This document shows, piece after piece, positions 18,392 to 46,704 of a stretch of 59,600 bases of DNA (positions within the stretch are counted from its first letter, which is position 1; every line of letters starts with the position of its first letter). Origin of the DNA: Candidatus Uhrbacteria bacterium (GTDB lineage Bacteria > Patescibacteriota > Patescibacteriia > UBA9934); assembly GCA_943359345.1 (NCBI GenBank), contig CALRHE010000004.1:1-59600 (forward strand), given 5' to 3'. The translations under genes were made by a program, and so were the position numbers. The notes under the pieces are model-generated. The model saw only the letters and a program-made list of their open reading frames with translations. It ran no database searches and was not told where the DNA came from.

Positions 18392-18847
18392 TTAATCTTC
18401 TATCTCTTCTTGATCGTCTGGAGAAGAATCCGGTGGGCACGCAAGGTGTGCGAAGATAACGCGGAGCATCTTCGTCGCTGGGATGCCGTCGTTCGGGGAC
18501 TGGAGGTTAATCCCACTTTCCGTCATGGCCTGTAGGTGGAGAGTGAGACACGCATCTTCCCCGTTGATCACGAAGAACGGCTCGTTGGCATAGAGGACAA
18601 ACTGCACTTCATTACTGAACTCTGTCAAGTAGAGAGTGACCGTCAATTTGGCATTGTCATACCAGGATTCCAAACTGGGAGTGCTCGGGCAAAGGCGGAT
18701 GGTGACCCGTTCACAGTCGGTTGTAAAGGTCAGCACAGCCTCACCGTCGTAAGAATCATCTTCTGTCACTCCAAAGTCGTTTAGCGACAGAGCGTAAACC
18801 ATGAGGTTGGCGATGTCGAGAAGACGCTGGTTGGCGATGTCGCTCAT
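18392..18847 (-). CDS. ORFan hypothetical protein, acidic
   Basis: 151 aa; GAGG SD, own promoter, visibly more GC-rich than flanks. Confidence 0.65.
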   Translation of the reverse strand: MSDIANQRLLDIANLMVYALSLNDFGVTEDDSYDGEAVLTFTTDCERVTIRLCPSTPSLESWYDNAKLTVTLYLTEFSNEVQFVLYANEPFFVINGEDACLTLHLQAMTESGINLQSPNDGIPATKMLRVIFAHLACPPDSSPDDQEEIED

Positions 18848-18908
18848 GATGAACCTCGGAGGATGAGTTCAAACCGGCGATTGCCAGTCTGGTCGTTGGA
18901 CGACCGAG

Positions 18909-18937
18909 AAGCATATCATAAAATGTCAATAAAAGCA
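18909..18937 (-). promoter_or_regulatory. Putative sigma70 promoter for the 18847 ORFan
   Basis: Minus strand TTGCTT, 17 nt, TATGCT. Confidence 0.45.
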
Positions 18938-18951
18938 AGGGCTCGCCCAAA

Positions 18952-18983
18952 CAGCCCGACCCCCAAAATTGGGGGTCGGGCTG
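18952..18983. terminator. Perfect 15-bp hairpin downstream of the 19005-19511 lipoprotein gene
   Basis: cagcccgacccccaa aa ttgggggtcgggctg. Confidence 0.65.
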
Positions 18984-19004
18984 ATCTTGGCTATAAACTG
19001 TGAC

Positions 19005-19511
19005 CTACTCGTTCCAATGGATTTGCTGGATAACTGCTTCAGCCAGAGCTTCGCCCGCTGGCTTTAGGTAGAATAAACCAATATACACGTTTTGCTCATC
19101 TAAATAGTAACTGTGACCGGGCCAGGTTTCGCCGCCAAGTAGTCGGCCATTACCCCGTATGGCCTCCTTGCCTGCTAAAATCACGTCTTCAGTAGAAGTG
19201 AAGCTGTCGGCTATGTTCTCTTGGCCAGAGATATAGGGTGTTATCTCAATAAAAAAAGTTTGATCAGGATATTCAATGCCGTAGCCATCCTGTGAGATAA
19301 AGTTTTGAATCCGTACCCTACTCTCTGTCTGCTCGAGCACGTAACCGTAGTCAACCGGCAAACGGTAGGCGGCTGTATTTACGAATTGATATTCGCCACT
19401 CGGGAAAGCTGCCTCCCAGCCCTGAACCGTTTCACTAGTTTGGGACGTAGCGTTCACACAGCCTCCTCCGATTAAAAGTAGCATTGCCCCCGCCAGTAAA
19501 TATTTTTTCAT
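19005..19511 (-). CDS. Putative lipoprotein (start moved to ATG 19511)
   Basis: MKKYLLAGAMLLLIGGGC signal peptide with lipobox-like GGGC. Confidence 0.7.
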   Translation of the reverse strand: MKKYLLAGAMLLLIGGGCVNATSQTSETVQGWEAAFPSGEYQFVNTAAYRLPVDYGYVLEQTESRVRIQNFISQDGYGIEYPDQTFFIEITPYISGQENIADSFTSTEDVILAGKEAIRGNGRLLGGETWPGHSYYLDEQNVYIGLFYLKPAGEALAEAVIQQIHWNE

Positions 19512-19512
19512 A

Positions 19513-20394
19513 TTAGCTGAGTTTAAATAATTTTTTTGCATTCTCTGTCGTCACCCTGGCTACCTCGTCGACAGTGATCCCCTTTAATTCAGCAATCTTC
19601 TGAGCTACGTGTTCGACGTACTTCGGTTCGTTACGTTTACCCCGATGCGGTGCTGGGGTCAGGTAGGGCGAATCGGTTTCGATCATGATCTGCTCAAGCG
19701 GTATCTCCTTAGCAGCCGCCATGACGTTTTTTCCGAAGGTCACAATACCCGTCAAGGATACGTAAAAACCGAGTTCATGATACACGGCCGCCTCGGCCAC
19801 TGTGCCAGTGAAACAGTGGATCACCCCACGACGTTTTAGGCCACCTCGATCAATCTCTTCTCTCAAAAGCTCAGCCTGGTCGGTGTGTGCATCGCGACAA
19901 TGAATGACGACGGGTTTGTCGACCTCAGTCGCAAAACGCAACTGTTCACGAGCTTGATCTTGCTGGTCTTTTTTCAGAGCTTCGAGATCGACGCCTGGAG
20001 GAACACGATAATAATCCAGACCGAGCTCACCGATGGCCACAACCTTTGGGTGCTTGGCGAGTTCACGATAATAATCCCAATCAAAGCGTTCGGCTCGCGT
20101 CCTAATGTGAGCGGGGCCATCACCTTCTTTCAGATCGTCAACAATACCCGGCGGAAGCTCGTTCTCATCAAAAAAATCCTGGGCGTGCAAATGATTCGGG
20201 TGGAGTCCGATCGTGCACCATACACCGTCATACTTCTCGGCCAGCGCGATACCATTCTTGCTCGTCGTCGACTGCGTGCCCACAGTAATCATGCCCACAC
20301 CGGCTTCGAGCGCTCGTTTCACAACAGCGTCCATGTCTTCCTGGAAAGCCTGAAAGTGAACGTGGCAATGCGTGTCAATAAACCTATAATCCAT
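19513..20394 (-). CDS. tatD: TatD family hydrolase/DNase
   Basis: DTHCH, GLHP, IGELGLDY, IHCR, VIHCFTG, IETDSPYL. Confidence 0.95.
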   Translation of the reverse strand: MDYRFIDTHCHVHFQAFQEDMDAVVKRALEAGVGMITVGTQSTTSKNGIALAEKYDGVWCTIGLHPNHLHAQDFFDENELPPGIVDDLKEGDGPAHIRTRAERFDWDYYRELAKHPKVVAIGELGLDYYRVPPGVDLEALKKDQQDQAREQLRFATEVDKPVVIHCRDAHTDQAELLREEIDRGGLKRRGVIHCFTGTVAEAAVYHELGFYVSLTGIVTFGKNVMAAAKEIPLEQIMIETDSPYLTPAPHRGKRNEPKYVEHVAQKIAELKGITVDEVARVTTENAKKLFKLS

Positions 20395-20396
20395 AA

Positions 20397-20876
20397 CTAC
20401 AAGAGACTGAATTGCTCCCCTAGGCTAACCGCAGTACCAATCAGGGTTGAGTCAAACATAGCTTGCGACACCGCCCCGGCTGGCAGGTATGTAACACTCA
20501 CGTAGGCGAGCGCAGCGATAAGAATAGCGGCCTGAACTAGCCCCAAAACCATTCCCAGTAATCGGTTAATTAAACCAACAAATGGGATGATCGACATCAA
20601 GCGACGCACCAAATCTAAGGCACCCACAATCAAGCGAATAATTTGACTAACCACTACCGTCAGGGTCAAAAATACCAACACGAAGATGGCGGGATTGCTC
20701 GTCAGGTCAAAGCCGGTAAAGTCTTCGAGCCAGGTGACGCCCCAAATTCCAATTGCGATGCTGACCACAAGACCAAGCAAGCTCCCAGCCGCCTGGATGA
20801 ATCCGTGTTTATATCCGCTCCAAATCAACAACAGCGAAATTACCGCCAAGATAACATCAATGATGATCGGATCCAC
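20397..20876 (-). CDS. cvpA: CvpA (colicin V production) family membrane protein
   Basis: GYKHGFI, INRLLGMVLGLVQA. Confidence 0.85.
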   Translation of the reverse strand: MDPIIIDVILAVISLLLIWSGYKHGFIQAAGSLLGLVVSIAIGIWGVTWLEDFTGFDLTSNPAIFVLVFLTLTVVVSQIIRLIVGALDLVRRLMSIIPFVGLINRLLGMVLGLVQAAILIAALAYVSVTYLPAGAVSQAMFDSTLIGTAVSLGEQFSLL

Positions 20877-20894
20877 AGTTTTAATCTTCAGTGT

Positions 20895-22340: not shown

Positions 22341-22345
22341 AAACG

Positions 22346-22420
22346 AGCGGTAACGCGTCAGATCCCGAACAAAGCGGTAACGCGTCAGATCCTGAACGAA
22401 GGTGAAGGATCTATCGAAAC
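22346..22420. repeat. 27-nt-period tandem duplication running into a REP-like half unit
   Basis: agcggtaacgcgtcagatcc(c/t)gaac at 22346-22370 and 22373-22397; gatcctgaacgaaggtgaaggatctatcgaaac at 22388-22420 is identical to 22797-22829. Confidence 0.9.
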
Positions 22421-22427
22421 AGTTATT

Positions 22428-23765: not shown

Positions 23766-23766
23766 T

Positions 23767-25014: not shown

Positions 25015-25539
25015 ATGATTACCCTAGGTCACTCAGCTCCAGATTTTAAGGATATCACCGCCTACAGACAGGGAGAGTTTACAAAAATTAGTTTGTCAGA
25101 CTTTCACGGTAAGTGGCTAGTATTATTTTTTTACCCACGTGACTTTACCTTTATTTGTCCAACTGAGCTGCGCGGTTTTGCTAAACACACGGCCGAACTA
25201 AGTCAGCTTGGTGCCCAGGTCCTAGCCGCTTCAACTGACTCTGAATGGAGTCACAAAGCTTGGTTAGAAAAAGACCTACCGGAGATTGACTATCCCGTGC
25301 TCGCCGATACCACGCACCAGGTCTCTAAAGCCTACGGGGTGCTAGATGAAACTAATGGCGAGTCGCAGCGTGGCCTGTTCATTATCGACCCAGAGGGACT
25401 GGTAAAATACGTGGTCATCTCAGCCGGTTCAGTTGGTCGCTCAGTCAAAGAAGTCATTCGTGTGCTCGAGGCTCTACAATCCGGTGAACTCTGCCCGGTG
25501 GAATGGGAGCCGGGACAAACAACTCTTGGCAAGGCCTGA
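25015..25539 (+). CDS. ahpC: Typical 2-Cys peroxiredoxin (AhpC/Prx1)
   Basis: FYPRDFTFICPTE, GRSVKEVIRVLEALQ, LCPVEW. Confidence 0.95.
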   Translation: MITLGHSAPDFKDITAYRQGEFTKISLSDFHGKWLVLFFYPRDFTFICPTELRGFAKHTAELSQLGAQVLAASTDSEWSHKAWLEKDLPEIDYPVLADTTHQVSKAYGVLDETNGESQRGLFIIDPEGLVKYVVISAGSVGRSVKEVIRVLEALQSGELCPVEWEPGQTTLGKA

Positions 25540-25543
25540 AATT

Positions 25544-25771
25544 TTATTTTTTCAGAAACTTTATAAAAATATCTTTCTCAGCACCCAGAGTTCTGAGATT
25601 ATTGAGTATAATAAATGATGGTAATGGATTATATTGAGGCACAACCAAAGGACGTGTTAACCCCTGCTTACGATAAATGCGATGATCGCCCTTGGTTCTA
25701 TGTAAAACGCAGCCTTGGGTCAAAAAAAATTTCTCGAATATTTTCCAACCTACGGATCCAAATTCACCCAT
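25544..25771 (-). CDS. hicA: HicA-family mRNA interferase toxin
   Basis: 75 aa; 'RTKGDHRIYRK...PLVVP' with the conserved G-x-H. Confidence 0.8.
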   Translation of the reverse strand: MGEFGSVGWKIFEKFFLTQGCVLHRTKGDHRIYRKQGLTRPLVVPQYNPLPSFIILNNLRTLGAEKDIFIKFLKK

Positions 25772-25772
25772 A

Positions 25773-26060
25773 CTAAGCCGCAGTCGGTATCCTCACCTTC
25801 ATGAGCGAATGCGTCACGACTTTCGGCGGCTGCATGGAGCCTTTAGTCTTTGTCCAGCCGAGTTCCTTGAGTGCCGACTCAACTGTACCCATCTCAATCA
25901 GCTCTTCAAAGAAGAGCTCAACTGCCTCAACGAACATACGCCGAGCCTGGGCTTCAGTTTTTCCTGCGGTTGATAAATCCAAAGCTGGGGTATAGGCCAC
26001 GAAGGCCTTACCTTCTCTGAAAATAGTAACTGGAAGTGAGCAGGAAAAATTAGTCTTCAT
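25773..26060 (-). CDS. hicB: HicB-family antitoxin (short, no evident DNA-binding domain)
   Basis: FVAYTPALDLSTAGKTEAQARRMFVEAVELFFE partial RNase H fold pattern; adjacent to hicA. Confidence 0.78.
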   Translation of the reverse strand: MKTNFSCSLPVTIFREGKAFVAYTPALDLSTAGKTEAQARRMFVEAVELFFEELIEMGTVESALKELGWTKTKGSMQPPKVVTHSLMKVRIPTAA

Positions 26061-26080
26061 ATTACTGGCACTATATCACG

Positions 26081-27574
26081 CTAGAATTTCTCCACAAATT
26101 CTACAAGTGTACGCACGCCGTGGCCTGTGCCACCCTTGCCTAGATACGAGCTCAACGGTCGCTCAGCATAAGCCGGGCCAGCAATATCTAGGTGTACCCA
26201 GGGTTTGCCATCTACGAACTCCTGAATGAATAGACCAGCTGTCAGTGTTCCGCCGTAACGCGAGGTTGGGATATTCCGCAAGTCGGCGATGTCCGAGTTA
26301 ATCAGTTCACGATAGCGCGGCTCAAGTGGTAATTCCCACATTTTTTCACCAGCCAGCTCGGCCGCCTCCAAAACTTGCTTACCCAACGCCTGATTGTTAG
26401 TCATGAGGCCAGTGATCTCTTCGCCAAGTGCCACCATGCAGGCACCCGTTAACGTAGCTAGGTCGATAATTGCATCTGGTTTTTCTTTAAGTACGTAGGT
26501 GATGGCGTCAGCTAGTGTGAGACGACCTTCAGCGTCGGTGTTCAAAATTTCGATCGATTTTCCATTTGATGCTCTAACCACATCACCAGGTCTAATCGAC
26601 TTACCTGACACCATGTTTTCTGTAGCCGCAATCACCCCATGCACGTTAACACGTGGTTTAAGTTTAGCTAAGATCTCGAACAGGCCGATCACGGCCGCTC
26701 CCCCAGCCATGTCGCACTTCATAGTCATCATGGCGTCAGCCGGTTTGAGAGATAATCCACCCGAATCAAAAGTTACACCCTTGCCCACCACGGCTAAAGT
26801 TTTTTTGGTTGGTCGAGGCGAGGTGTAGGTCAAGTGAATAAACTTAGGCTCATGCTCAGCCCCTTGAGCTACTGCCAGGTATGCTCCCATCTTGAGTTTT
26901 GTACATTCAGCTGTATCAAGCACCTTGATCTTGATTATGCCTGACGAGCTTTTAGCCACCTGCGTAGCGGCCGCAGCCATGTGTGTCGGTGTCATGTCTT
27001 GCGCCGGAGTGTTGACTAGATCACGAGCCGTGGTGATGCCGCCTGCAATCACCTGGGCTCGCTCAATATGTTTACGCATGGCCTGTGCCAGCCGACCGTC
27101 AGCTGCCAAAATTTCTAGGCTATCAATTTTTTTTGCCGGCTTGTGTTTGCGATAAGTCTCAAAAGTGTAATCAGCTAACTGAACAGCTAGTGCCACGGCC
27201 TCAGCGGATTCGGCTTTAAAATCTTTACCAGATAAATCCAGAGCCAAAGTTTTAAGGCCTTTACGTTTAGCTGTGGTCAACATGACTCCCGAGGCCTCCC
27301 GCACAGCCTCTTCTAAACCATGCAAGCGTTTACTCCCCAAACCAACCAGCAAAAACTCGTCAGCCATTGACTCTACCGGAGCCGGCAGTGACAACGACTG
27401 ACCGACCTTGCCAGAAAAATCCAAGGCCTTAGCAGCCTTGGCTGCTCGTTGTTTCCACACGTCATTAAAGCCTTTGAGGGTCTGAACATCAAACTCAGCA
27501 TTTTCAAACACCGGCAGCACCAAGAGCTCGGCTGGACTAGTCAATAAATCCCCTTTTTTTACTGTAATCGTCAT
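26081..27574 (-). CDS. pepA: Leucyl aminopeptidase (M17)
   Basis: VGKGVTFDSGG, MKCDMAGG, NTDAEGRL, DLATLTGA, HLDIAG. Confidence 0.97.
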   Translation of the reverse strand: MTITVKKGDLLTSPAELLVLPVFENAEFDVQTLKGFNDVWKQRAAKAAKALDFSGKVGQSLSLPAPVESMADEFLLVGLGSKRLHGLEEAVREASGVMLTTAKRKGLKTLALDLSGKDFKAESAEAVALAVQLADYTFETYRKHKPAKKIDSLEILAADGRLAQAMRKHIERAQVIAGGITTARDLVNTPAQDMTPTHMAAAATQVAKSSSGIIKIKVLDTAECTKLKMGAYLAVAQGAEHEPKFIHLTYTSPRPTKKTLAVVGKGVTFDSGGLSLKPADAMMTMKCDMAGGAAVIGLFEILAKLKPRVNVHGVIAATENMVSGKSIRPGDVVRASNGKSIEILNTDAEGRLTLADAITYVLKEKPDAIIDLATLTGACMVALGEEITGLMTNNQALGKQVLEAAELAGEKMWELPLEPRYRELINSDIADLRNIPTSRYGGTLTAGLFIQEFVDGKPWVHLDIAGPAYAERPLSSYLGKGGTGHGVRTLVEFVEKF

Positions 27575-29023: not shown

Positions 29024-29050
29024 GCCCCATGGTCAGAGAGACCATGGGGC
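29024..29050. terminator. Hairpin between convergent genes
   Basis: gccccatggtc agaga gaccatggggc. Confidence 0.65.
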
Positions 29051-29085
29051 ACGATTGTCGCCGAGCTGAACGGATCATGGGGTGA

Positions 29086-29820
29086 CTACGCCAAATCCAT
29101 GCGGATGGCCTCCAGGATGGAATAGTCATACCCTGGCTTGTAGTTTTCAAACACATCCCGTAAGGCAGGGTGTACGTCTGCTTCAGAAAGATCGGATGCG
29201 CAATTGAACAGGTGGAACTGCAGGCCGCCGAAATGGATGACTACCTTGAGCAGTTCCTGCCAATCGGCAAACATGTATGGAACCGTGAATACTTCCAGGC
29301 TATTCAAACCACCTTGATCGATGCACACACGGAAGCGATAGCGCAACGGAGGCGTTGCAAACTTGGCCGCGTCAGGCCCAGAGACGGTCGGCACAGCCTC
29401 GGACTGGCGGCTGGCCACTTCATTTGCGTGCACCAAAATCGCACCCTCATGCAAGAACTTGTAGCGTTTGGGAAACACCTGCACCATCCACTGATCAGGC
29501 AAGCTTTCGAGCAATGCCACCCCGAGTGCGTAGGCCAGCTGCCGACGCAATTCTATGGGTAGATCAGCGTGATCCTCAAGGCCCTCGATAATAATGTAGG
29601 CAACCCTCGGATCCCCAACCTCACCGTCATGGCATTCCCAAGGATTACCGAAATCGAAGATAACTGATTCACGGTCCTCAAGACCTGGAACCTGAGTGTC
29701 CGCGATGGTCTGCCAGAGAGAGCGGCGGACATCTGCTCGCCAAAAGCCGGCTGCCTCTTGACCGTGTTCCGCAATATACACCTCTGGAAACTCGTAATTT
29801 CCAATCCGAATGATGATCAT
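29086..29820 (-). CDS. ORFan hypothetical protein
   Basis: 244 aa; AGGAGG SD; TAGACT-17-TAACCT promoter upstream; GC-rich. Confidence 0.7.
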   Translation of the reverse strand: MIIIRIGNYEFPEVYIAEHGQEAAGFWRADVRRSLWQTIADTQVPGLEDRESVIFDFGNPWECHDGEVGDPRVAYIIIEGLEDHADLPIELRRQLAYALGVALLESLPDQWMVQVFPKRYKFLHEGAILVHANEVASRQSEAVPTVSGPDAAKFATPPLRYRFRVCIDQGGLNSLEVFTVPYMFADWQELLKVVIHFGGLQFHLFNCASDLSEADVHPALRDVFENYKPGYDYSILEAIRMDLA

Positions 29821-30048
29821 GTTCCCTCCTAAGTAGGTCGTCGTCTGGCCCTGCCATAGGGTTCGTTTCCTAGGAAGCGAAAACTCAGGTTACATAAAAA
29901 TATGCTTTTAGTCTAGCCCTCAATTCATCGGGCCTTGAAATCACTCAGGCTTTACTGGAATAGACAAAATCTATATTCAGTAGTAATCTGCTCAGTCGTA
30001 AGACAATCAACCAACCAACAAACCAATCTACTCCGTGGAGGAAATCAC

Positions 30049-30348
30049 ATGAGCGCCGCCTTGTATGACATCGATTACAGGCACGCCACCATCACCGAAC
30101 ATCGTGGACGCGACACGTGTGTAGGCAGAGTGGTGCGCGTTGAGCCCGACATGCAGGCAGGTCTAATCACACTGTGGTGGTCTGGACCAAGGGGCAATCT
30201 CCGTCGGGCTGTACTCGTATTCGCGGACTGGGATATCGAGTACCGCGACGGACAGGCTGTATTCCAAAAGGCTGCCAATCCACAACCCAATTACCACGGT
30301 CACGCGACACCCAATGTAACCGGCTACATGATCGCATTAGCCCCGTGA
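30049..30348 (+). CDS. ORFan hypothetical protein (start moved to ATG 30049)
   Basis: GGAGG SD 7 nt upstream; TAGACA-17-TAATCT promoter at 29961-29989. Confidence 0.65.
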   Translation: MSAALYDIDYRHATITEHRGRDTCVGRVVRVEPDMQAGLITLWWSGPRGNLRRAVLVFADWDIEYRDGQAVFQKAANPQPNYHGHATPNVTGYMIALAP

Positions 30349-30377
30349 CTGCCGTCTCACCCCATGCAAACAACGAG

Positions 30378-30426
30378 CCCCCTCTACTGGGAGCCTGGTC
30401 GTTCTCAGCACGGGGTTTGTTGTTTA
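30378..30426 (+). repeat. 49-nt structured 3' element, copy 1
   Basis: ccccctctactgggagcctggtcgttctcagcacggggtttgttgttta, identical to 31303-31351. Confidence 0.9.
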
Positions 30427-30669
30427 AATAAAATCTGTTTAGAACAGCTAAAATACAAATCCACCTTCGTGATGAAGACGGACTGGTGGTGAACCGAAAG
30501 CTACGTTAACCGAATATTTAGAGAAAACGTTGAAAAGCTCGCATTGCTGAAGTTTAGCTTCGGAACACCCGTTGCCGCCGAATAGACAGAGCGAGCTATT
30601 TATGATAGTCTCTTGGGTCGCAAGACGCCCTACGGCAGGGACAGCCGTGTTCTTTCAAGGAGGTCGACC

Positions 30670-31272
30670 ATGTATCAAGTGGCCGTGCTGATAACAGCCG
30701 GACTCATTCTCATTTCAGCGGTGGACTACGTCCGCCGCGCCTGGAGAGGTGAGACGAATCCGGTGCCCGCCACCTGGATACTCATGATGGTTATGATCAG
30801 TCTGTCCTGCTGGACTTACTGGCAGAGCCCTAGCAGGTCGTGGACAAGTAATATCGCTGTTCCGGCGAGCGTCCCCAACGTCGCCTACATCCTGTCCGCG
30901 GTTCTTATCCTAAATGCGCGTCGGGGAAGCCTGGTGGTTGCTTTCGACCGCGTACAGAGATGGTGCCTGTTTGGTGGGGCCGGAGTCGTGGTGTTTTGGT
31001 TCATTACCAAGAACGCCCTCGTCTCCTACATCCTCGTCCAGTGCATCGGGCTCATTGCCTACGCAGCGACTGCCCGGAGGCTCTGGTACGCGGAGCGCGT
31101 GACCGAACCTTTGGTCTTCTGGGTCTGTATCCTGTTTGCGAACTTGTGCGCCTTGTACCCGGCGTGGGTGCGTGACGACATGTTCTCCTGGATCTACCTT
31201 ATCCGGACCATCCCCACCACTTCCGGCATGATCTTTCTTATCGCCCGCGCACAGCGGCGTATGAAGTCATGA
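30670..31272 (+). CDS. Multi-pass membrane protein (start moved to ATG 30670)
   Basis: AAGGAGGT SD; TAGACA-17-TAGTCT promoter at 30583-30611; about 6 TM helices, GETNPVPATW motif. Confidence 0.75.
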   Translation: MYQVAVLITAGLILISAVDYVRRAWRGETNPVPATWILMMVMISLSCWTYWQSPSRSWTSNIAVPASVPNVAYILSAVLILNARRGSLVVAFDRVQRWCLFGGAGVVVFWFITKNALVSYILVQCIGLIAYAATARRLWYAERVTEPLVFWVCILFANLCALYPAWVRDDMFSWIYLIRTIPTTSGMIFLIARAQRRMKS

Positions 31273-31302
31273 TCGCGTATCTCGCCCCGTACGAGCGACA
31301 AT

Positions 31303-31351
31303 CCCCCTCTACTGGGAGCCTGGTCGTTCTCAGCACGGGGTTTGTTGTTTA
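31303..31351 (+). repeat. 49-nt structured 3' element, copy 2
   Basis: Identical to 30378-30426. Confidence 0.9.
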
Positions 31352-31631
31352 GTGATAATATCTTTATGTATTAAGGAATTCGAAACCCGCGAGTAAAGCT
31401 GCTAAAAATGGGACACATATTAGCAGATGCCGAAATATCCTTTGCTATTTCTTAAACCTTAAAATAAATTCCTGTATTTAACATAGTTGGTCTAGATAGA
31501 ACTAGTAAAAATACTCTTGAAAATGAACAGGCATCTTGGCTTTTTTAACCTGACTTAGGACACATGCAGAGTAAGCTTATGCCAAAATTAGCTAGCTTTT
31601 TTTTGGAAAAATATAGTAGAGTAGTCTGATT

Positions 31632-32057
31632 ATGAATCCTTTTCTCAAAGTAGCAGGAATCCTAGTTGGTAGTGCTCTTGTTGCGACTACAGTAATAAAT
31701 CTATCGAAAAATATTCCGCTACTAGTTCAAAGCGAGACTGTTCAAGAAACTCCAAAATTCACACTGCCAAGTCAAATTCAAAAACCAGCCCTCATTCAAG
31801 CTACAGGTGGAGGAGCGATCGAAGAAGCTGTTGTTGAAAAACCAGAAGTTAAGAAAATCGTTACTCCTCCAAAGACACAAGTTAGACCAGTATCAAATTG
31901 CCATCCAAGCTATTCAGGATGCCTTGAAATGAATGCTGGTGACTATGACTGTGACAGCGGTTCAGGCAATGGTCCAAATTACACCGGATCAATTGAAGTA
32001 TACGGCTCTGACCCATTTGACCTTGACCGAGATAATGATGGTTGGGGCTGTGAGTAG
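31632..32057 (+). CDS. Membrane-anchored protein with a C-terminal Excalibur-like Ca-binding domain
   Basis: N-terminal TM, Pro/Lys linker, CHPSYSGC..DYDC...DPFDLDRDNDGWGCE. Confidence 0.75.
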   Translation: MNPFLKVAGILVGSALVATTVINLSKNIPLLVQSETVQETPKFTLPSQIQKPALIQATGGGAIEEAVVEKPEVKKIVTPPKTQVRPVSNCHPSYSGCLEMNAGDYDCDSGSGNGPNYTGSIEVYGSDPFDLDRDNDGWGCE

Positions 32058-32443
32058 TATGAATAATTGTTGTACTATTTAACTAAAACGTTATAAAAAA
32101 GACATCCAAATGAAGTACCAGATATTATAAAAATTATCTGAGGTTTTTCTATACACTCAATCAACGTTCTCCCTCGATTTAGTTTGTTCTTGGTGAACCA
32201 CCCTCCAGAAATGTGGAACCTCATTCTCGAAGAGCTGAAGCAGCTCTATGTTCTGCAAACCGAGGAAAACAGAGCTACGGCATTTGCTCGATAGGACTAC
32301 CGATGGGGAGTAGAACAAGAAGAAACAAGGCGAGATTCATGAAGTCAGCCCGTTCATTGGTACACGGGATTTTCAGGGCAGAGATTATGGAGGAATGGTC
32401 AATATAACTTGGCTAACATAAGCCATTATATTGCGAGTTTACC

Positions 32444-32472
32444 TTGACAAAAGGTCAAAAAAGTGTTATAGT
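32444..32472 (+). promoter_or_regulatory. Near-consensus sigma70 promoter
   Basis: TTGACA, 17 nt, (TG)TATAGT. Confidence 0.75.
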
Positions 32473-32663
32473 AATAGACGTAAGATGTTCATTGTCATGG
32501 TGCTTGCGGCAAGTCATTGTTCCGCGCTTTGAGGAAAGAAAATAGCTTCTTTTCTGAAAGCGCGTCGAGCAATGGCTCGCGGCAATCGGTGGCACCCGCC
32601 ACCAACGCTGACGGTACGCCCTGACCGTCGGTTTCCTCCAAAGGGCTACAATCGGAGCACCCC

Positions 32664-32957
32664 ATGACGACGACCCAGACCACCCGCGCCCCCGAGACCG
32701 CCACCTCCTTCGCTTCCCGCGTGGAGCGGCACAGCGGCCTCAAGGTCAGCCGCATCCCCAACGCGGAGCCCGAGGTCATGCTCGGCGGTGCCATCATCTG
32801 CAACTCCCCCCACGGTACGCTGGTCTTCACGGACTGGTCGCATCAGGAGGAGGACGGCACGGACATCTACTCCAAGGCCGTCATCGTGAACCGTGGGAGC
32901 GAACTCGCCCCCGCCGACCACGATGCGGACGGCATCATCCCGCAGGACAACAAGTAG
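32664..32957 (+). CDS. ORFan hypothetical protein, strongly GC-rich
   Basis: 97 aa, GGAG SD, GC3-rich codons, downstream hairpin. Confidence 0.65.
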   Translation: MTTTQTTRAPETATSFASRVERHSGLKVSRIPNAEPEVMLGGAIICNSPHGTLVFTDWSHQEEDGTDIYSKAVIVNRGSELAPADHDADGIIPQDNK

Positions 32958-33004
32958 CACTCTCGCGCATCGGCGCGGCTACGCACCTCAACGTTCAATC
33001 GTTG

Positions 33005-33040
33005 CAAGGAGCGTAACCCGTCGGTGCGCTCTTTGTTTAC
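33005..33040 (+). terminator. Intrinsic terminator-like hairpin
   Basis: caaggagcg...cgctctttg followed by ttt. Confidence 0.5.
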
Positions 33041-33086
33041 AGTAGGTTTTCTATGATAAAATCAGGTGACTAAATAACTTTTCCCT

Positions 33087-33434
33087 ATGTTAGGACGACA
33101 TCCTGAAGGAGGAATGGAAGTGCCGCAGCCACCCGAGGCCACAGAGCACAAGATACAGTCAAAGTATATTTATCGTGAGGAGGGCGTACCCGAGGATCCA
33201 GCAACGCTCAATGCCCTACAAGAGTGGGCGGATGCGTGGGGTGAATACGTCTGGCAATGTAAAATCGAAAACCAGCCAGTTCCTCCAAACGATGACGAGG
33301 TAAGTGCTGACCTCAAAGCAAAGGGTGACCTTTTGGAGCAGAAAGGCGCAGCTCTTGAAAAAATGCTACCAGAGGCCAAGTTCTATTCTGGCGTTGTCAT
33401 TTGGGAGGGCGGACACGTTGAACTGACCACATAA
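33087..33434 (+). CDS. Hypothetical acidic protein
   Basis: 115-aa ORF filling an intergenic gap, followed by a hairpin. Confidence 0.65.
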   Translation: MLGRHPEGGMEVPQPPEATEHKIQSKYIYREEGVPEDPATLNALQEWADAWGEYVWQCKIENQPVPPNDDEVSADLKAKGDLLEQKGAALEKMLPEAKFYSGVVIWEGGHVELTT

Positions 33435-33485
33435 AAGAAAAAGAACAGCCAATAAAAACAACCCTCCACGAGGGAGAGTTGTCTT

Positions 33486-33560
33486 TGGTGACTCCACCGG
33501 GAATCGAACCCGGATTTAAGGCTTGAGAAGCCTCTGTCCTAACCGTTAGACGATGGAGCC
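33486..33560 (-). tRNA. tRNA-Glu(CTC), CCA encoded
   Basis: GGCTCCA...TGGAGTC acceptor stem, GAGGC-TTCTCAA-GCCTT anticodon arm, GGTTCGATTCC T arm. Confidence 0.95.
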
Positions 33561-33572: not shown

Positions 33573-33681
33573 CAATTTAATTAGGCTATCTTCTGCGTCA
33601 CTCGTTCCGTCGGATTCGTCGTACCTGTCAGTACGTCTCGTCCTTACTCGTTCGCTTCTAGAATCTGACCTAATTAAATTG
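33573..33681. repeat. 13-bp terminal inverted repeats enclosing an 83-nt structured core
   Basis: caatttaattagg (33573-33585) and cctaattaaattg (33669-33681); inner cgtac-ctgtca-gtacg hairpin. Confidence 0.6.
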
Positions 33682-33768
33682 ACTTTATTATGAAAAGAAC
33701 GGTGGAAGGATAGCCTGAAAGTCAGTATTGGTCAAGCTGTGTTTGGTCAGTTACACTAGGGTCAGATA

Positions 33769-36928: not shown

Positions 36929-37831
36929 TCACCGCGTAAGTTCTAAGAAGATCGTCTCAAGCGAGGCGGCTCCGGATTTAATCGACTTAATGTTGCCTGT
37001 GTAGTGCGAGGTCAGGGCGTGCATGTCTGGTCCCAGATCTGTGAGTGGATATTCAAATTCAACGCCTATCGATTTGACTTCCGCTAGGTGTGGGACATTG
37101 ATGTCGAAGAGCTCAAAATGGATTGAATTCTGTGCAAACTCTGTCTGCATGTCCTTCAAATTACCCTCACGCACAACCTGTCCGTGATTGATCAAGGTAA
37201 TTTCGTCACACAGCTGCTCGGCTTCTTCCAGGTAATGCGTTGTAAACAAAATCGTCATCCCCTCTTGGTTTAAACGCCGCACCAGCTGCCAAATCTTTTG
37301 GCGCAAAGCTACGTCAACACCGGCGGTTGGCTCATCGAGAATCAAAAATTTCGGCTTGTGAATCAAGGCTTTAGCAATCATCAAACGCCTTTTCATGCCA
37401 CCCGATAAATGCTTAGCCCGTTCATCAATTTTGTCGAGTAAATCAAGATCCGTAAGCACGGCCTCAATGCGAGCATTACGCTCGTGGCTTGGGACTCCAT
37501 GCATACCAGAAAAATAGTGCAAAACCTCACGAACCGTAAAGGCCATTTCATAGGTCACTTCCTGGGGCACCACGCCTATGAGTTTTTTAGCTTCTAAAGT
37601 GTCGCTAACAATATCCAAACCAAAAATTTCGATCTTGCCAGTATCTGGCAATAACATACCGCTTAGCATACCAATCAAGGTCGACTTACCGGCCCCGTTT
37701 GGACCAAGTAGGCCATGAATTTTACCTTGCTCTATCTTAATCGAAACTGTTTTAAGAGCCTCGACCACTGGTCGTTTGGACGGATGAAAGGTTTTACTAA
37801 CCTGGCTAACCAGTAACGGTAACATAAACAA
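36929..37831 (-). CDS. ABC transporter ATP-binding protein (YadG-like)
   Basis: GPNGAGKST, LSGGMKRR, ILDEPT, TTHYLEEAE. Confidence 0.93.
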   Translation of the reverse strand: MFMLPLLVSQVSKTFHPSKRPVVEALKTVSIKIEQGKIHGLLGPNGAGKSTLIGMLSGMLLPDTGKIEIFGLDIVSDTLEAKKLIGVVPQEVTYEMAFTVREVLHYFSGMHGVPSHERNARIEAVLTDLDLLDKIDERAKHLSGGMKRRLMIAKALIHKPKFLILDEPTAGVDVALRQKIWQLVRRLNQEGMTILFTTHYLEEAEQLCDEITLINHGQVVREGNLKDMQTEFAQNSIHFELFDINVPHLAEVKSIGVEFEYPLTDLGPDMHALTSHYTGNIKSIKSGAASLETIFLELTR

Positions 37832-39567: not shown

Positions 39568-39596
39568 TTGCCAAGAGTAGCGTCTGAGTCTAATCT
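39568..39596 (+). promoter_or_regulatory. Putative sigma70 promoter
   Basis: TTGCCA, 17 nt, TAATCT. Confidence 0.55.
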
Positions 39597-39611
39597 GCCC
39601 CTGAGGTGAAC

Positions 39612-39899
39612 ATGGATCCCATCTTCTACTTGATTGGCTTTGTGTGGTTCTGTCTAAGCCTGGCCGTTATTTGGCACCTATGCCGACACATGCGTCCGGT
39701 CATGCATGCCGACACTGGCGTGAATATCTTTCTGGCAGTCTTGGCAATCTCGCTTGGTGGTTTCGTGACCTCCTTGCTCGTGGTCATGTGCCTGTATTTC
39801 GAAAGTATCAAACTGGCTGGAGCACTTGGTGCTTGGTCTGTGCTGGTCAGCATTAGCGCCAGCTGCTACTGCGTGAATGCACGCCGACCCAGATCATGA
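39612..39899 (+). CDS. ORFan small membrane protein (3 TM)
   Basis: GAGGTG SD, own promoter, 12-bp hairpin at the stop. Confidence 0.6.
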   Translation: MDPIFYLIGFVWFCLSLAVIWHLCRHMRPVMHADTGVNIFLAVLAISLGGFVTSLLVVMCLYFESIKLAGALGAWSVLVSISASCYCVNARRPRS

Positions 39900-39921
39900 G
39901 CAGTACTCCCTGCTCATGATC
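39892..39921. terminator. 12-bp hairpin
   Basis: gatcatgagcag tactcc ctgctcatgatc. Confidence 0.55.
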
Positions 39922-39958
39922 AACACTTAACCGAAAATATACTTTGCCTACTGAAAAC

Positions 39959-39986
39959 AAAACACCCGGCCTAAGCCGGGTGTTTT
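39959..39986 (-). terminator. Bidirectional intrinsic terminator downstream of csp
   Basis: aaaacacccggc ctaa gccgggtgtttt. Confidence 0.8.
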
Positions 39987-39996
39987 GATTGCCTGG

Positions 39997-40203: not shown

Positions 40204-40321
40204 AATGATAACTATAAATTATTACCGCAATAACGCTAGCTGCGGGAAATTTATCCATCTCCACGTAGTGCTGTTTTGCCGCAATACTATACACTAAACT
40301 CAAAAAAATGTAAAGTCTGAG

Positions 40322-40834
40322 GTGAATATGCGCCTGCCTACCCGAAAATCTGAGCTAGAACGCCTAGAGCGTCAGGTGATAGATAACTACCTAACTCCAG
40401 CAAAAATCGAGCGAATGCAGGTAGAATTGCAAGATTTGATCAAAAACCAACGCCGTCCTGCCGCTGACGAGGTGGCCCGTACGGCCCAAATGGGCGACCT
40501 CTCAGAAAACGCGGCCTACCAATTTGCCAAACAGCACCTGCGCCGGCTGAATGATCGGATCACTAATCTCGAGGAACGCCTAAAGCACGCCATTCCCATC
40601 AACCAAGGAGCCAGTGATGGCGTCATCCGGATCGGGTCTACTGTCACGTTACGCACCAACGGTAAACAGCTAATCTTTGAAATTCTAGGCTCATCAGAAA
40701 CCAACCCTTCGAGTGGACGCATCTCCTACAGCTCCCCGCTTGGGGTTGCCCTCATCGGAAAAGGCGTTGGTGATGTAGTTGTCTTAAAAACTCTGAGAGG
40801 CGAAACTAAATACGAAATTGTGTTGATCGGCTAG
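40322..40834 (+). CDS. greA: Transcription elongation factor, GreA/GreB family
   Basis: GDLSENAAY, IGSTV, ISYSSPLG.AL.GK.VGD. Confidence 0.9.
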   Translation: MNMRLPTRKSELERLERQVIDNYLTPAKIERMQVELQDLIKNQRRPAADEVARTAQMGDLSENAAYQFAKQHLRRLNDRITNLEERLKHAIPINQGASDGVIRIGSTVTLRTNGKQLIFEILGSSETNPSSGRISYSSPLGVALIGKGVGDVVVLKTLRGETKYEIVLIG

Positions 40835-44046: not shown

Positions 44047-44089
44047 AGACACCAGAGTGTAGCCGGTGGCGTGATAATATGCGAGCCAT

Positions 44090-44365
44090 ATGTCCCGTTG
44101 GTTTGTGTATATCTTACGCTGCAAAAATGGCAGCCTCTACACCGGCATCACCAACAACCTGGAAGCCCGCGTGACTAAGCACAACGCCGGGCGAGGTGCC
44201 AAGTACACCCGAGCTTTTGGACCGACCAAACTCGTGTACTCACAGGCTATGAAATCACCGACCGCCGCCCGCAAACGCGAGGCCGAAATCAAGAGCTGGA
44301 GCAAAGCCGCGAAGGAAAAAATTATTCAACTTTATTTCGGTTACTCACCGCCACGAAGTAGCTGA
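44090..44365 (+). CDS. GIY-YIG nuclease, UPF0213/YhbQ-like
   Basis: WFVYILRC.NGSLYTGITNNL..R..KHN.G.GAKYTR, A.KREAEIK. Confidence 0.92.
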   Translation: MSRWFVYILRCKNGSLYTGITNNLEARVTKHNAGRGAKYTRAFGPTKLVYSQAMKSPTAARKREAEIKSWSKAAKEKIIQLYFGYSPPRSS

Positions 44366-44664
44366 AGGATGGTATCGAGTTTGGCATTCAGAGTCTTGTA
44401 CTGCTCAGTTGTGATGCCATTCAAAGAAGGGCGGCTGTCAGGCCTGGCATGTGGTCGGCTCTGGTAGGCCGACTTCTTCTCGTAAAAGTTTGATTTGTCG
44501 GAGCGGTCGTCGTTTTTCTCCTCGCGAATATAACAGGCGCTACAGAACACCGGCTTCTTACCGTTCGGCTTAAAAGGCACCTGGCACACATTGCCACAAC
44601 CGCTACAGGTAGCTGAATGCATGGTGTTATCGTACGGTTTCTTGCTAGATGATTTCTTAAACAT
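44341..44664 (-). CDS. CxxC-x17-CxxC domain protein
   Basis: ATCSGCGNVCQVPFKP.GKKPVFCSACY. Confidence 0.9.
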   Translation of the reverse strand: MFKKSSSKKPYDNTMHSATCSGCGNVCQVPFKPNGKKPVFCSACYIREEKNDDRSDKSNFYEKKSAYQSRPHARPDSRPSLNGITTEQYKTLNAKLDTILQLLRGGE

Positions 44665-44729
44665 AGTTGGCGGAGGTTAGCGCAAAAATAAATAAATAGC
44701 AAGTTTCAACAAAACTCACGTTATTATCG

Positions 44730-45806
44730 TTACGGAGCCACAAGTGTAAATATGACTCGGCCAAGCACCTGGCCGCGCTCATTAGCCACGGTTACACGCC
44801 ACTTACCATATTCCAACTGCGATTTCATGGTGTAACCACGATAACCTTCTGGTCGGCCGCCACGAATCTTGAAATTTAATACGCCCCGCTCCTCCCACTT
44901 ACCTGTGTCTAGATTTTTATACTCCCAGTTGTGGTAAATAGTTGTACGCACTTCAGCCGGCGCAAAAATGGATGTGTAGGCGTAGACACCCTCATCAAGG
45001 TTGGCGTGCACGATTTGCCCAGGCACAAGCCCTTGCCAAAAACTTTCGTCTTCACCTACCAAGGTAAACAGGTTACCATCACGAATAATCTGATTATAAA
45101 TCCCGGCCTCACGAATTGAAAGAGGTAAAGGTGGAATGATGTTTAGGAAGTACAAAACATTCATGAGCACGAACACGCCCATCACCACCACGTACATTAA
45201 CTTTTTTTGGCGCTCAATGTGTTCTGCTAGTTGAGCCAAACAGGTAATCAACAGCAACACGATAAACGTGCTCATGGCACCACTGATGATGAAGATCCAA
45301 CCGTTAATTGAATGCATCACAAACGGCAAGAGGATGGCAAAATATGACAGCAACAAGAATGTATACACCCCAAACAGCGTAATTGGTTTCAGGTAATACT
45401 GACGAAACAGCTCACTTGAAATCATGACACCAGTCACAAGCGCCAGCAACGGCCAGCTAACAGACAGTGATCCGCTATACCAGTAAAATAACAGGGACGA
45501 ACTCAAGAGCGCACCGAAAGTCAGTTGAATCACGTAAGGCGACAAGGCTCTTAGATAACGCAAAATTGCCCATTTACTCGGTGACCTACGCCCGTCAAAA
45601 ATATTCTGGTATATCAAAGCCAGGGCCGCCAGAATAGCGTAAGCACCCAAAAACTGCATGGTGCTCTTCATCGACATTATCTGGAAAGTGATTAGGTCAA
45701 AAATAAAACCCGCTACCAGCAATCCTGGTACCAGCAGGCGCTCATGTTTATCGTAATAAGCGCGTAATTTTTTATCTAACCGTAGACTCTCCTTAAGCAT
45801 GGGCAC
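44730..45806 (-). CDS. DUF2914-family membrane protein
   Basis: Multiple TMs; C-terminal GGRPEGYRGYT.K...GKWRV.V. Confidence 0.8.
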   Translation of the reverse strand: MPMLKESLRLDKKLRAYYDKHERLLVPGLLVAGFIFDLITFQIMSMKSTMQFLGAYAILAALALIYQNIFDGRRSPSKWAILRYLRALSPYVIQLTFGALLSSSLLFYWYSGSLSVSWPLLALVTGVMISSELFRQYYLKPITLFGVYTFLLLSYFAILLPFVMHSINGWIFIISGAMSTFIVLLLITCLAQLAEHIERQKKLMYVVVMGVFVLMNVLYFLNIIPPLPLSIREAGIYNQIIRDGNLFTLVGEDESFWQGLVPGQIVHANLDEGVYAYTSIFAPAEVRTTIYHNWEYKNLDTGKWEERGVLNFKIRGGRPEGYRGYTMKSQLEYGKWRVTVANERGQVLGRVIFTLVAP

Positions 45807-45872
45807 ATCATAACAGATTGATGATTAATGGCAGATTTGGTAACTATTAAGGCCAATAAACCCTAGGTTTAA

Positions 45873-45901
45873 TTGACAAAAAGGCACTTTTTTGCTATAC
45901 T
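45873..45901 (+). promoter_or_regulatory. Near-consensus sigma70 promoter
   Basis: TTGACA, 17 nt, (TGC)TATACT. Confidence 0.78.
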
Positions 45902-45968
45902 GATTGGTTGGCTTTGGCTCATGCCATTCCATCAAACCCCAACAATCCCACCCCCCCGAGAGGACATC

Positions 45969-46643
45969 ATGAACGTAGTTCCGACCCCAACCCGCGTCTA
46001 CCGTCGCCGTGACATCGGCGCTTCCCCCGCCGCATGCAACGAGATCCTGGTCGATTCGACCCCGATCATCGTGATCCGGCGGCGGCGCCCTGCGACGGTC
46101 AACGCCGTTCGGCCCCTGATGTCGGACGCACTGCCGTCCGCTCGGTGTGTCGAGGTGATCCCCGAGCCAGTCGCAATCCAGGTCCTGGCCAAGCCGGTAC
46201 TGGTCGTGCCGACGCAGCCCCAGACCGCGTCGTTCGACGTCCTGGCCCGCAAGTGGACTCCGGCGACCGTCCAGTACGGTCAAACCCGGTCGGTTCACAT
46301 CACGGGCCGGCCGGAGTCGGCTACCTCGAACGGTCGGCGACTCAGCAAACAGGTGCGGTTCGCCCGTAAGGCCGCCAGCCTGCAGCGTCAACTCCGTGAG
46401 CTGGCCGTGGGCCTGTCCGATCAGACCCTGGGGCTCACGAACAAGTTCAGCCTGGCCTATGGAATTCGTGAAAACCTTGGCAAAATCTGGAACCTGTGGT
46501 CGCTCGAAAGCGTGATCGCGGGACTCGAAAACTTCGCGGCCTACGAGGCGCTCCGGCAGTTCATCGCGCTCGCGCGTGCGCGACAGATGAAGTTCGACGC
46601 CGTGGAAGCAAGGGTAAGGGCGTCGCTCCAGGCCTTGGCCTGA
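45969..46643 (+). CDS. ORFan hypothetical basic protein (start moved to ATG 45969)
   Basis: GAGG SD, own promoter and terminator, GC-rich. Confidence 0.6.
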   Translation: MNVVPTPTRVYRRRDIGASPAACNEILVDSTPIIVIRRRRPATVNAVRPLMSDALPSARCVEVIPEPVAIQVLAKPVLVVPTQPQTASFDVLARKWTPATVQYGQTRSVHITGRPESATSNGRRLSKQVRFARKAASLQRQLRELAVGLSDQTLGLTNKFSLAYGIRENLGKIWNLWSLESVIAGLENFAAYEALRQFIALARARQMKFDAVEARVRASLQALA

Positions 46644-46655
46644 GCTCGTACAATC

Positions 46656-46704
46656 ACGGGTCGGATGTGTAGGCGCGATCGCCGATCACATCCGACCCGT
46701 TTTC
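46656..46704 (+). terminator. 14-bp stem terminator
   Basis: acgggtcggatgtg...cacatccgacccgt followed by ttt. Confidence 0.75.

Follow-up and report, generated by a model that had tools for sequence, protein, structure and literature searches.

Seven Shine-Dalgarno-led accessory gene units in flexible slots of a Candidatus Uhrbacteria genome, probably exchanged within Patescibacteria

Seven single-gene units in four intergenic slots

The stretch of DNA analysed here (the window) comprises positions 1 to 59,600, in nucleotides (nt), of contig CALRHE010000004.1 (C4) in assembly GCA_943359345.1, a 732-kb genome of a Candidatus Uhrbacteria bacterium (Patescibacteria) that is 98% complete in 24 contigs. 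Its subject is a set of seven open reading frames (ORFs), named by their lower coordinate (18392, 29086, 30049, 30670, 32664, 39612 and 45969), which a preliminary description had read as self-contained, GC-rich ORFan cassettes with their own promoter, Shine-Dalgarno (SD) motif and terminator, gained one at a time from a different translational regime by an unknown capture mechanism. The notion of insulated single-gene expression units was supported by the present analysis (Table 1). The units would share one layout, in which a sigma-70-type promoter is followed by a structured leader of 60-185 nt (shorter in one unit), an SD, a coding sequence with high GC content at third codon positions (GC3), and a strong hairpin terminator. 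Genes were called genome-wide (692 genes) with our own dicodon model, and comparisons were made with 18 congeners at the DNA level (G-numbered genomes, G000 being the genome itself) and 60 relatives at the protein level, as well as with a sister strain (L034/L035) and with L033, a lineage whose core proteins are 45-62% identical to those of the host.

The seven ORFs occupy four intergenic slots, whose flanking genes (tatD/atpI, o28093(PdaC)/arfB, o38849/cspA and DUF2914/msrA) are conserved in congeners. Between tatD and atpI, G004 carries a different ORF of 158 amino acids (aa), and G013 a different, GC-rich ORF of 288 aa with a TTGACA-17-TAAGCT promoter, a leader of ~60 nt, a GGAG SD and a terminator. 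The comparison of filled and empty sites that had been proposed as a check could be made at this slot, since the two core genes are adjacent in six congeners (G003, G016, G018, G015, G009 and G012). The o28093/arfB slot spans ~1.8 kb with two units in L034, and ~12 kb, inverted, in G014. In the o38849/cspA slot, an ABC-F paralogue takes the position of ORF 39612 in G014, G004 and G013. In the same three genomes the DUF2914/msrA slot holds unrelated ORFs with GC3 of 0.83-0.93, most of them with an SD-like motif; four genomes thus carry four unrelated sets of ORFs of GC3 0.8-0.93 at a single position. The slot occupants of different genomes are unrelated by blastp and range from 97 to 425 aa, with lipoproteins, membrane proteins and soluble proteins among them.

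Table 1. Slots, units and associated features of the window (positions in nt).
Feature	Coordinates	Strand	Promoter	Leader and SD	ORF	3' element or content
Slot 1, tatD/atpI						ORF 18392 plus o19005
Unit 1	18312..18938	-	TTGCTT-17-TATGCT (18938-18910)	62 nt, GGUCGU/ACGACC hairpin, SD GAGGT	18392-18847, 151 aa, acidic	branched terminator hairpin ~18382-18312
Slot 2, o28093/arfB with tRNA-Glu						4.7 kb, six units
Unit 2	29024..29915	-	TAGACT-17-TAACCT	leader hairpin, motif CCCTATGGCAGGG at 29861-29849 (-), SD AGGAGG	29086-29820, 244 aa	terminator 29050-29024
Unit 3	29962..30441	+	TAGACA-17-TAATCT	GUC-GUAA-GAC hairpin, SD GGAGG	30049-30348, 99 aa	87-nt 3' element 30355-30441
49-nt repeat, copy 1	30378-30426					inside Unit 3 3' element
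Unit 4	30583..31366	+	TAGACA-17-TAGTCT	GGGUC-GCAA-GAC hairpin, motif CCCTACGGCAGGG at 30627-30646 (+), SD AAGGAGGT	30670-31272, 200 aa, hydrophobic, membrane-like judged by eye	
49-nt repeat, copy 2	31303-31351					inside Unit 4 3' element
Unit 5	32444..33045	+	TTGACAAAAGG...TG-TATAGT (32444-32472)	185 nt, SD GGAG	32664-32957, 97 aa, GC3 0.93	85-nt terminator module 32958-33041
Further unit beyond the seven	33050..33449	+		AAGGAGG	probably from GTG 33117	
tRNA-Glu(CUC)	33486..33560	-				borders the largest slot
Slot 3, o38849/cspA						ORF 39612
Unit 6	39568..39987	+	proposed, TTGCCA-17-TAATCT	only ~8 nt, SD GAGGTGA	39612-39899, 95 aa, hydrophobic, membrane-like judged by eye	hairpin 39958-39987, common to convergent cspA
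Slot 4, DUF2914/msrA						ORF 45969
Unit 7	45873..46705	+	TTGACAAAAAGG...TG-TATACT (45873-45901)	67 nt, SD GAGAGG	45969-46643, 224 aa, GC3 0.80	terminator hairpin 46656-46700

Composition and expression signals

GC3 of the seven ORFs ranges from 0.60 to 0.93, corresponding to the 91st-100th percentile of the genome (mean 0.522, standard deviation 0.070), and each ORF is GC-richer than its own 1-kb flanks. Thus, the GC-richness first ascribed to most of them extends to all seven, which fall within the top 9% of the genome for GC3. By codon position, the GC content of the cassettes is 0.645/0.448/0.728, compared with 0.575/0.396/0.507; the gain at third positions is mostly C, and first and second positions increase in proportion to GC3. 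In the dicodon model, ORFs 30049, 30670 and 39612 fall below the threshold and 45969 scores weakly, indicating atypical codon usage. Two possible causes of the high GC content were considered and set aside: simple GC-biased gene conversion is argued against by the flanking core genes o28093 and arfB, which have recombined and are not GC-rich, and translational selection by a GC3 of only 0.54 in the 40 best-fitting genes of the bulk dicodon model, which serve as a weak proxy.

Hairpins, anticipated downstream of most of the ORFs, were found at the 3' side of all seven, with energies of -29 to -50 kcal/mol and z-scores of -2.5 to -6.0. The promoter strings proposed earlier are present, and those of 29086, 30049, 30670, 32664 and 45969 are conserved in orthologous cassettes, with no such support for those of 18392 and 39612. 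The five TAnnCT-type -10 boxes all fit the native -10 type. A promoter score of 11 of 12 was reached only by the cassette promoters of 32664 and 45969. These two share the TTGACAAAAGG...TAnnnT type, which occurs three times in the genome (~0.1 expected by our own estimate) and always before SD-led genes with GC3 of at least 0.8, the third being C18:9913-10776. Rfam searches (E <= 1) returned nothing in any cassette or leader; in the rest of the window they returned three tRNAs, the cspA 5' untranslated region (UTR) and a few weak sub-threshold matches.

Two kinds of translation start

The 3' end of the 16S rRNA is canonical and carries the anti-SD GGATCACCTCCTTTC. Nevertheless, among the 627 genes with GC3 <= 0.6, SD motifs of at least 5 nt precede N-terminal candidate starts no more often than internal ones (2.0% vs 1.9%). 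Above a GC3 of 0.65 these frequencies change to 10.7% and 2.7%, so that the SD enrichment is not explained by composition. This is the contrast in SD use between the ORFs and core genes that the preliminary description had led one to expect: the GC3-rich class is enriched and the low-GC3 genes lie at the level of internal starts. GGAG, GAGG and AGGA occur before the starts of longest ORFs at chance frequency (for GGAG, 28 observed and 23 expected). The SD motifs attributed to the seven ORFs are all in place, with SD/anti-SD duplex energies of -5.8 to -12.8 kcal/mol, and five of the seven rank in the best 6% of all gene starts. The reported lack of an SD at atpA, atpD, pepA and typA was likewise borne out in all four, and glmS and metG also lack one.

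Genome-wide, T occupies position -1 in 78% of ATG starts ('T-ATG'), genes inside operons included, and these starts have no SD, whereas C is found at this position in all seven cassette starts. T-ATG looks like a distinct initiation context of core genes. Examples are found at window positions 14301-15800 and 26081-27574. Internal in-frame ATGs mostly have C at -1. Genes that open an operon often have a TAnnCT/TAnAAT box whose end lies ~9 nt upstream of the ATG, which suggests leaderless or near-leaderless core mRNAs. greA is an exception among the core genes, with a strong SD, GAGGTGA (CTGAGGTGAAT-ATG, window 40310-40330), nearly identical to that upstream of ORF 39612 (CTGAGGTGAAC-ATG).

Both kinds of start were also met with elsewhere in Patescibacteria. 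At a few other loci, the annotated genes are for the most part SD-less and often carry T at -1, with SD-led starts in a minority made up of hypothetical genes; native genes of L033 also show T-ATG without SD. The two regimes thus coexist within the phylum, and the earlier idea that the units stem from a different translational regime loses its footing. A foreign donor fares no better, as the named homologues are mostly Patescibacteria metagenome-assembled genomes (MAGs) and the others lie on Patescibacteria-type metagenome contigs. The SD would instead mark a gene class within the phylum, namely leadered accessory units. A search for literature on SD or leaderless usage in Patescibacteria found nothing pertinent.

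Coding character and distribution of the seven ORFs

Several comparisons indicate that the ORFs are real accessory genes, most of them lineage-restricted. ORF 32664 differs from its counterpart in G013 by 12.5%, 5.2% and 24% at codon positions 1, 2 and 3, respectively (3>1>2), and by two in-frame 3-nt indels. Its coding sequence is 86% identical, its 3' UTR 96.7% and its leader 98.4%; given the divergence of third positions and an identity of 89% in the adjoining tRNA, the Unit 5 leader is strongly constrained. ORF 29086 and its syntenic homologue in L034 share 47% aa identity, with a ratio of nonsynonymous to synonymous divergence (dN/dS) of 0.41 and a dS of 1.27. For ORF 30049, the L034 homologue (57% aa identity, dN/dS 0.50, dS 0.75) keeps the promoter, the leader and the 3' element. 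ORF 30049 is also weakly related to ORF 32664 (33% over 51 aa). Two of the seven proteins look like membrane proteins by eye, the rest like small soluble ones.

Relatives are scarce for most of the seven. ORF 29086 has weak homologues in 3 of the 60 relatives, matches only two clusters among 5.8 billion proteins, and gave no match in a genome-contig scan; ORF 30049 was found in none of the 60 relatives at the protein level. ORF 18392 has only three relatives among 1.84 billion representatives (86% identity, 38% identity and one weak repeat protein). One 1493-aa protein of the representative library (P0090) contains seven stretches similar to residues 53-101 of ORF 18392, so this segment may be a repeat-domain fold. 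AlphaFold2 models of 29086 and 18392, built from 3-sequence alignments, reached pLDDT values of 53-56, too poor for fold comparison. ORF 45969 matches only two clusters among the 5.8 billion proteins. Its homologue in L029 (59% aa identity) is exactly 224 aa long with the frame kept; its upstream neighbour is again DUF2914, and the first 20 nt of msrA are present as well. Over the whole ORF, the differences are equal at the three codon positions and the indels are in frame. Identity to the L029 homologue is only 65% over codons 21-140 (window 46029-46388), 93% over the C-terminal 84 codons and 97% over the 3' UTR. Hypermutation by a diversity-generating retroelement was considered for the variable part and rejected, as no template repeat was found; nor does the genome hold a DNA paralogue of any cassette coding sequence. 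Searches of Pfam, PHROGs, PADLOC and NCBIfam gave no match for any of the seven ORFs, and scans of viral contigs with three of them found nothing, a weak negative given that single-protein scans reach close relatives only.

ORF 30670 stands apart. With at least 83 full-length homologous clusters (48-82% identity), it is not an ORFan, so that the designation of all seven as ORFans fails for this one. Source-named members of its family are all Patescibacteria or unclassified MAGs, one of them labelled Nanoarchaeia. Its orthologue was found in one of the 60 relatives and none of the 18 congeners, and is absent from the sister strain. ORFs 18392, 39612 and 45969 were likewise found in none of the 18 congeners at the DNA level; vertical conservation across the genus, which would have spoken against acquisition, was therefore not observed.

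Recombination around the slots and the 3-kb block

The window and L034 share ~94-95% nucleotide identity overall, and 98-100% in 200-nt bins over most of the region. Patches of 71-86% identity flank the slots (o28093, arfB, the end of prx and 37.2-37.5 kb), and identity inside the slot drops to 49-82%. Against L034, dS is 0.055-0.12 for glmS and pepA, 0.63 for o28093 and 1.17 for arfB, so that together with 30049 and 29086 (values above) the o28093/arfB slot and its flanking genes stand at 5-20 times the background. Since the high dS reaches into core flanks, this pattern of divergence points to import from a divergent lineage by homologous recombination, not to fast protein evolution. The capture mechanism, formerly called unknown, can thus be specified in part, the mosaic being indicative of homologous recombination in the conserved genes on either side. 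In the ABC ATPase gene, the patch at window 37200-37500 (84-88% identity, background 98-100%) is probably another recombination tract. A mini-slot at 25535-26069, which holds two small ORFs (25544-25771 and 25773-26060), is only 49-55% identical to the sister strain and 534 nt long compared with 415 nt there, and has flanks that are 98-100% identical.

A block of 3,024 nt (30426..33449, + strand), absent from L034, carries four units (30670, 31632, 32664 and 33117). It starts directly 3' of the Unit 3 3' element, and 36 nt separate its end from tRNA-Glu. At the end of Unit 4, the Unit 3 3' element recurs in a second copy, identical over 49 nt, so that a direct repeat brackets Unit 4, an arrangement that would be the expected product of a crossover within a shared terminator. 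GC3 of the four units is 0.74, 0.26, 0.93 and 0.48, respectively, and this inequality marks the block as composite; the mosaic insert fits the stepwise assembly implied by the proposal that units were gained one at a time. Its AT-rich member (31632-32057, GC 0.42, GC3 0.26) lies between two GC-rich units and encodes a secreted-looking protein with a weak Excalibur-like C-terminus. ORF 33117 (105 aa, GC3 ~0.48, start chosen by eye) is absent from G013 and L034. An element of ~100 nt between tRNA-Glu and arfB (33575-33682) has many matches in congeners (~74-88% identity) and also matches G000 C5:5889-5970 and C2:28142-28215, and appears to be a dispersed repeat family.

No integrase or transposase was annotated by Pfam at 11.7-47 kb, in agreement with the preliminary description, and the whole genome encodes one tyrosine recombinase (PF00589, Xer-like), on C17. 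A tRNA-integrating island is not indicated either, as the slot contains no repeat of the tRNA-Glu 3' end and no integrase. ComEC and DprA domains are encoded in the genome; the ComEC match at G000 C10:3421-4158 has one TGA inside its read-through frame.

Transfer of whole units and portable modules

Transfer is indicated for Unit 4, whose closest relative is in L033. The two are 82% identical at the aa level, with core proteins at 45-62%, which implies that the unit was transferred complete; the copies agree in the TAGACA-17-TAGTCT promoter, the leader (GGGUCGCAAGAC..CCCUACGGCAGGG), the AAGGAGGT SD and the type of terminator. At six other Patescibacteria loci (GC 36-55%), members of the family always have their own sigma-70 promoter and a leader of 45-63 nt. 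An SD is present in four of the six and an SD-like G-run in the other two, and four are clearly GC-richer than their locus.

Parts of units also recur without their coding sequences. Copies of the 85-nt Unit 5 terminator stand behind genes unrelated to ORF 32664 in G007 (for a 311-aa repeat lipoprotein and a 126-aa membrane protein) and in G014 (for 116 aa), at 85-89% identity vs 65-78% for core genes. The 49-nt 3' element was also found in G008, G012, G014 and L034. Units 2 and 4, their homologues and a third, unrelated L033 gene all have the leader motif CCCTAYGGCAGGG ~25 nt upstream of the SD, so that it occurs in at least three unrelated gene families. A scan of 596 Gb with an extended motif gave 21 exact matches, with ~17 expected by our own estimate. 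Six to eight of the 21 are on Patescibacteria-type contigs, where the motif comes after TTGACAAAAGG...TGnTATAnT and GUCAUnUCAGAC, and in most of these an SD motif, an ATG and a GC3-rich ORF come next.

The motif CCCUAYGGCAGGG(M)(M)AG(M)CG was seen before unrelated SD-led genes in L033, L068, L071-L073, L077, L079 and L088. In most cases GUC-(loop)-GAC, close to the predicted 5' end, comes before it. Rfam has no entry for the motif, which may act as a 5' element that stabilises the mRNA or has a regulatory role. CsrA was considered as a reader of the GGA-loop leader motif and dropped, as no CsrA gene is present. L069 and L088, MAGs labelled 'uncultured Gammaproteobacteria', carry the leader motif, an SD and a GC3-rich ORF, L088 also a TTGACAAAAGG-type promoter, and may be mis-binned.

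Weighing the explanations

Taking these results together, we lean, with somewhat better than even confidence, towards regarding the seven as mostly lineage-restricted accessory genes that are packaged in insulated units, seated in flexible slots and swapped by recombination through their flanks within a Patescibacteria pool. The SD-led pool so far looks confined to Patescibacteria; its members appear to share promoter, leader and terminator modules and would travel between lineages as whole units. Gain or replacement would proceed mainly by homologous recombination through conserved flanking genes, probably after DNA uptake, and recombination within shared terminator modules may contribute, as suggested by the 49-nt direct repeat around Unit 4. 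Core genes of the host would start without SD in a 'U-AUG' context, many of them apparently leaderless or tightly behind the preceding gene. An SD would be needed in the cassettes because their mRNAs have leaders, and would stand for a second way of initiating translation within the phylum, not for a donor outside it.

Several observations weigh against this reading. This reading gives no account of the GC3 excess, which the recombined o28093 and arfB do not share. A generic sigma-70 scan returned 21 sites with 18.8 expected, that is, chance level, which also detracts from the promoters as first proposed, and the promoters, leaders and leaderless core mRNAs are all predictions from sequence. 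Target-site duplications, suggested as a further test, could not be defined, nor could a direct empty-site progenitor, the sister allele being itself divergent. The evidence for both start regimes in other Patescibacteria comes from a few loci of 12-17 kb each. Finally, ORFs 18392, 39612 and 45969 are present in all same-species contigs examined: the slot of 18392 is collinear in every contig that reaches it, and 39612 is found in 9 of 10 contigs, the tenth (933 nt) ending inside the ORF. ORFs 29086 and 30049, in turn, are syntenic at dS ~1. Part of the class may therefore be old residents evolving beyond recognition, not replaced cassettes.

Carried to its end, this last thought yields an old resident regulon, a vertically inherited class of SD-led, GC3-rich genes at fixed positions that diverged in place beyond recognition, which we consider unlikely. 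The constancy within the species would suit it, as would the two slots with characterised congener occupants, most of them again GC3-rich and SD-led (the cspA slot holding an ordinary ABC-F paralogue), the synteny of 29086 and 30049 in L034 at only 47-57% aa identity, and the N-terminal two-thirds of 45969, which shows no codon-position bias (18 synonymous vs 89 non-synonymous codon differences over the whole ORF). However, it would leave unexplained the 82% identity of Unit 4 to L033 and its absence from the congeners and the sister strain, the truly empty tatD/atpI sites, the range of lengths and types among slot occupants, and the extension of high dS into flanking core genes, which marks imported DNA.

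Recent import from a GC-rich, SD-using organism outside the phylum, e.g., a host bacterium, is improbable. GC is raised at all three codon positions, as long evolution at ~60% GC would give, the SDs are strong and the distribution is patchy. Nevertheless, the 5.8 billion and 1.84 billion proteins yielded only near-identical copies, or one or two divergent relatives with neighbours of the type seen in the Candidate Phyla Radiation (CPR); in the one family found, almost every named member is a Patescibacteria or unclassified MAG; contigs of Patescibacteria contain further copies of the promoter, leader and terminator modules; the -10 boxes are of native type; and neither viral relatives, in scans for close relatives of three ORFs, nor PHROG matches were detected. 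More improbable by far is an artefact, whether chance ORFs in GC-rich non-coding DNA or chimeric assembly. GC-rich DNA does open long ORFs in several frames, e.g., 32646-32960(-) and 45825-46391(-), and three of the ORFs score below the coding-model threshold; yet the codon-position patterns, in-frame indels, dN/dS below 1 and full-length homologues speak for coding sequences, and the recurrence of identical junctions in independent ENA and Logan assemblies from several samples excludes chimeras. Among the assemblies with contigs of the species are ERZ4201063-65 and ERZ27280192-310 in ENA, and ERR3856787-89 and ERR3719144 in Logan.

The favoured reading of slot exchange also has a bolder version, which we put forward tentatively and think rather doubtful as it stands: a phylum-wide, 'plug-and-play' accessory pool that circulates horizontally and uses a second, SD-dependent expression channel. 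Its parts would be a promoter of the TTGACAAAAGG...TGnTAnnnT or TAGACA-17-TARYCT type, a 5' leader hairpin with GUC-GNRA-GAC and/or CCCUAYGGCAGGG, an SD, a GC3-rich (mainly C3-rich) coding sequence and portable terminators. The shared modules would have two roles: as handles for recombination, by which new coding sequences are captured, and as a point of joint control (e.g., by way of anti-SD availability or mRNA stability) that sets the cassettes apart from the SD-less 'U-AUG' core.

Comparison with known systems

CPR bacteria, or Patescibacteria, are uncultured ultra-small symbionts whose gene expression and gene gain are largely unknown. The locus described here would present two initiation modes in one cell, an SD-less 'U-AUG' core and an SD-led, leadered accessory minority with fast turnover, together with a concrete route of gene gain, in which insulated units are exchanged in fixed slots by recombination through the flanks. 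The units would define a candidate set of host-interaction genes that can be found from sequence alone, and their shared promoter, leader and terminator modules would supply ready-made expression parts for CPR genetics.

The closest parallel in organisation is offered by the minimal mobile elements (MMEs) of Neisseria (Saunders & Snyder 2002; Snyder et al. 2007), as defined in PMC3082526. As in MMEs, a given pair of conserved genes encloses different whole-gene cassettes from one strain or species to the next, with no dedicated mobility genes (at 11.7-47 kb), and entry would occur by homologous recombination in the flanks in a host with DNA-uptake genes, as suggested here by the mosaic dS and by ComEC and DprA. 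In contrast to MMEs, the present cassettes stand apart in both composition and translation, being GC3-rich and SD-led in a genome that is otherwise SD-less, use promoter, leader and terminator modules that are stereotyped across the phylum, and appear to be exchanged between species and genera, not between strains alone; transformation is here a prediction from gene content.

Phage morons are reportedly autonomous promoter-gene-terminator units between conserved prophage genes. The units resemble them in consisting of a single ORF of deviant composition with its own promoter and terminator, placed between conserved genes without polar effects, but lack a prophage context, their neighbours being chromosomal housekeeping genes (atp, tatD, pepA, glmS, cspA and msrA). 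With integron cassettes they share the prevalence of ORFan single-gene units, the similar imperfect-palindrome 3' elements that follow unrelated ORFs, and the direct repeat of such an element around one unit (Unit 4). However, no IntI is adjacent, and the cassettes are spread over four loci and have their own promoters instead of forming an array with a common Pc. The 3' elements were rejected as attC sites since, by inspection, they end in U-tracts like terminators and have no RYYYAAC...GTTRRRY pair.

In SD-poor Bacteroidia a few genes have retained an SD, e.g., rpsU of Flavobacterium johnsoniae. As in those bacteria, the anti-SD is intact here, the bulk of the genes is SD-less and a small minority has strong SDs, which could allow separate control. 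Unlike there, the SD-bearing genes are variable accessory genes that have a composition of their own and carry portable UTR modules, and do not form a ribosomal-protein autoregulation circuit. The units are a real and coherent class, and the most fitting description is that of insulated, moron-like units placed in flexible slots of the MME kind and so far apparently confined to Patescibacteria; their translational mode, distinct from that of the core genes, their GC3 signature and their portable expression modules would be new features.

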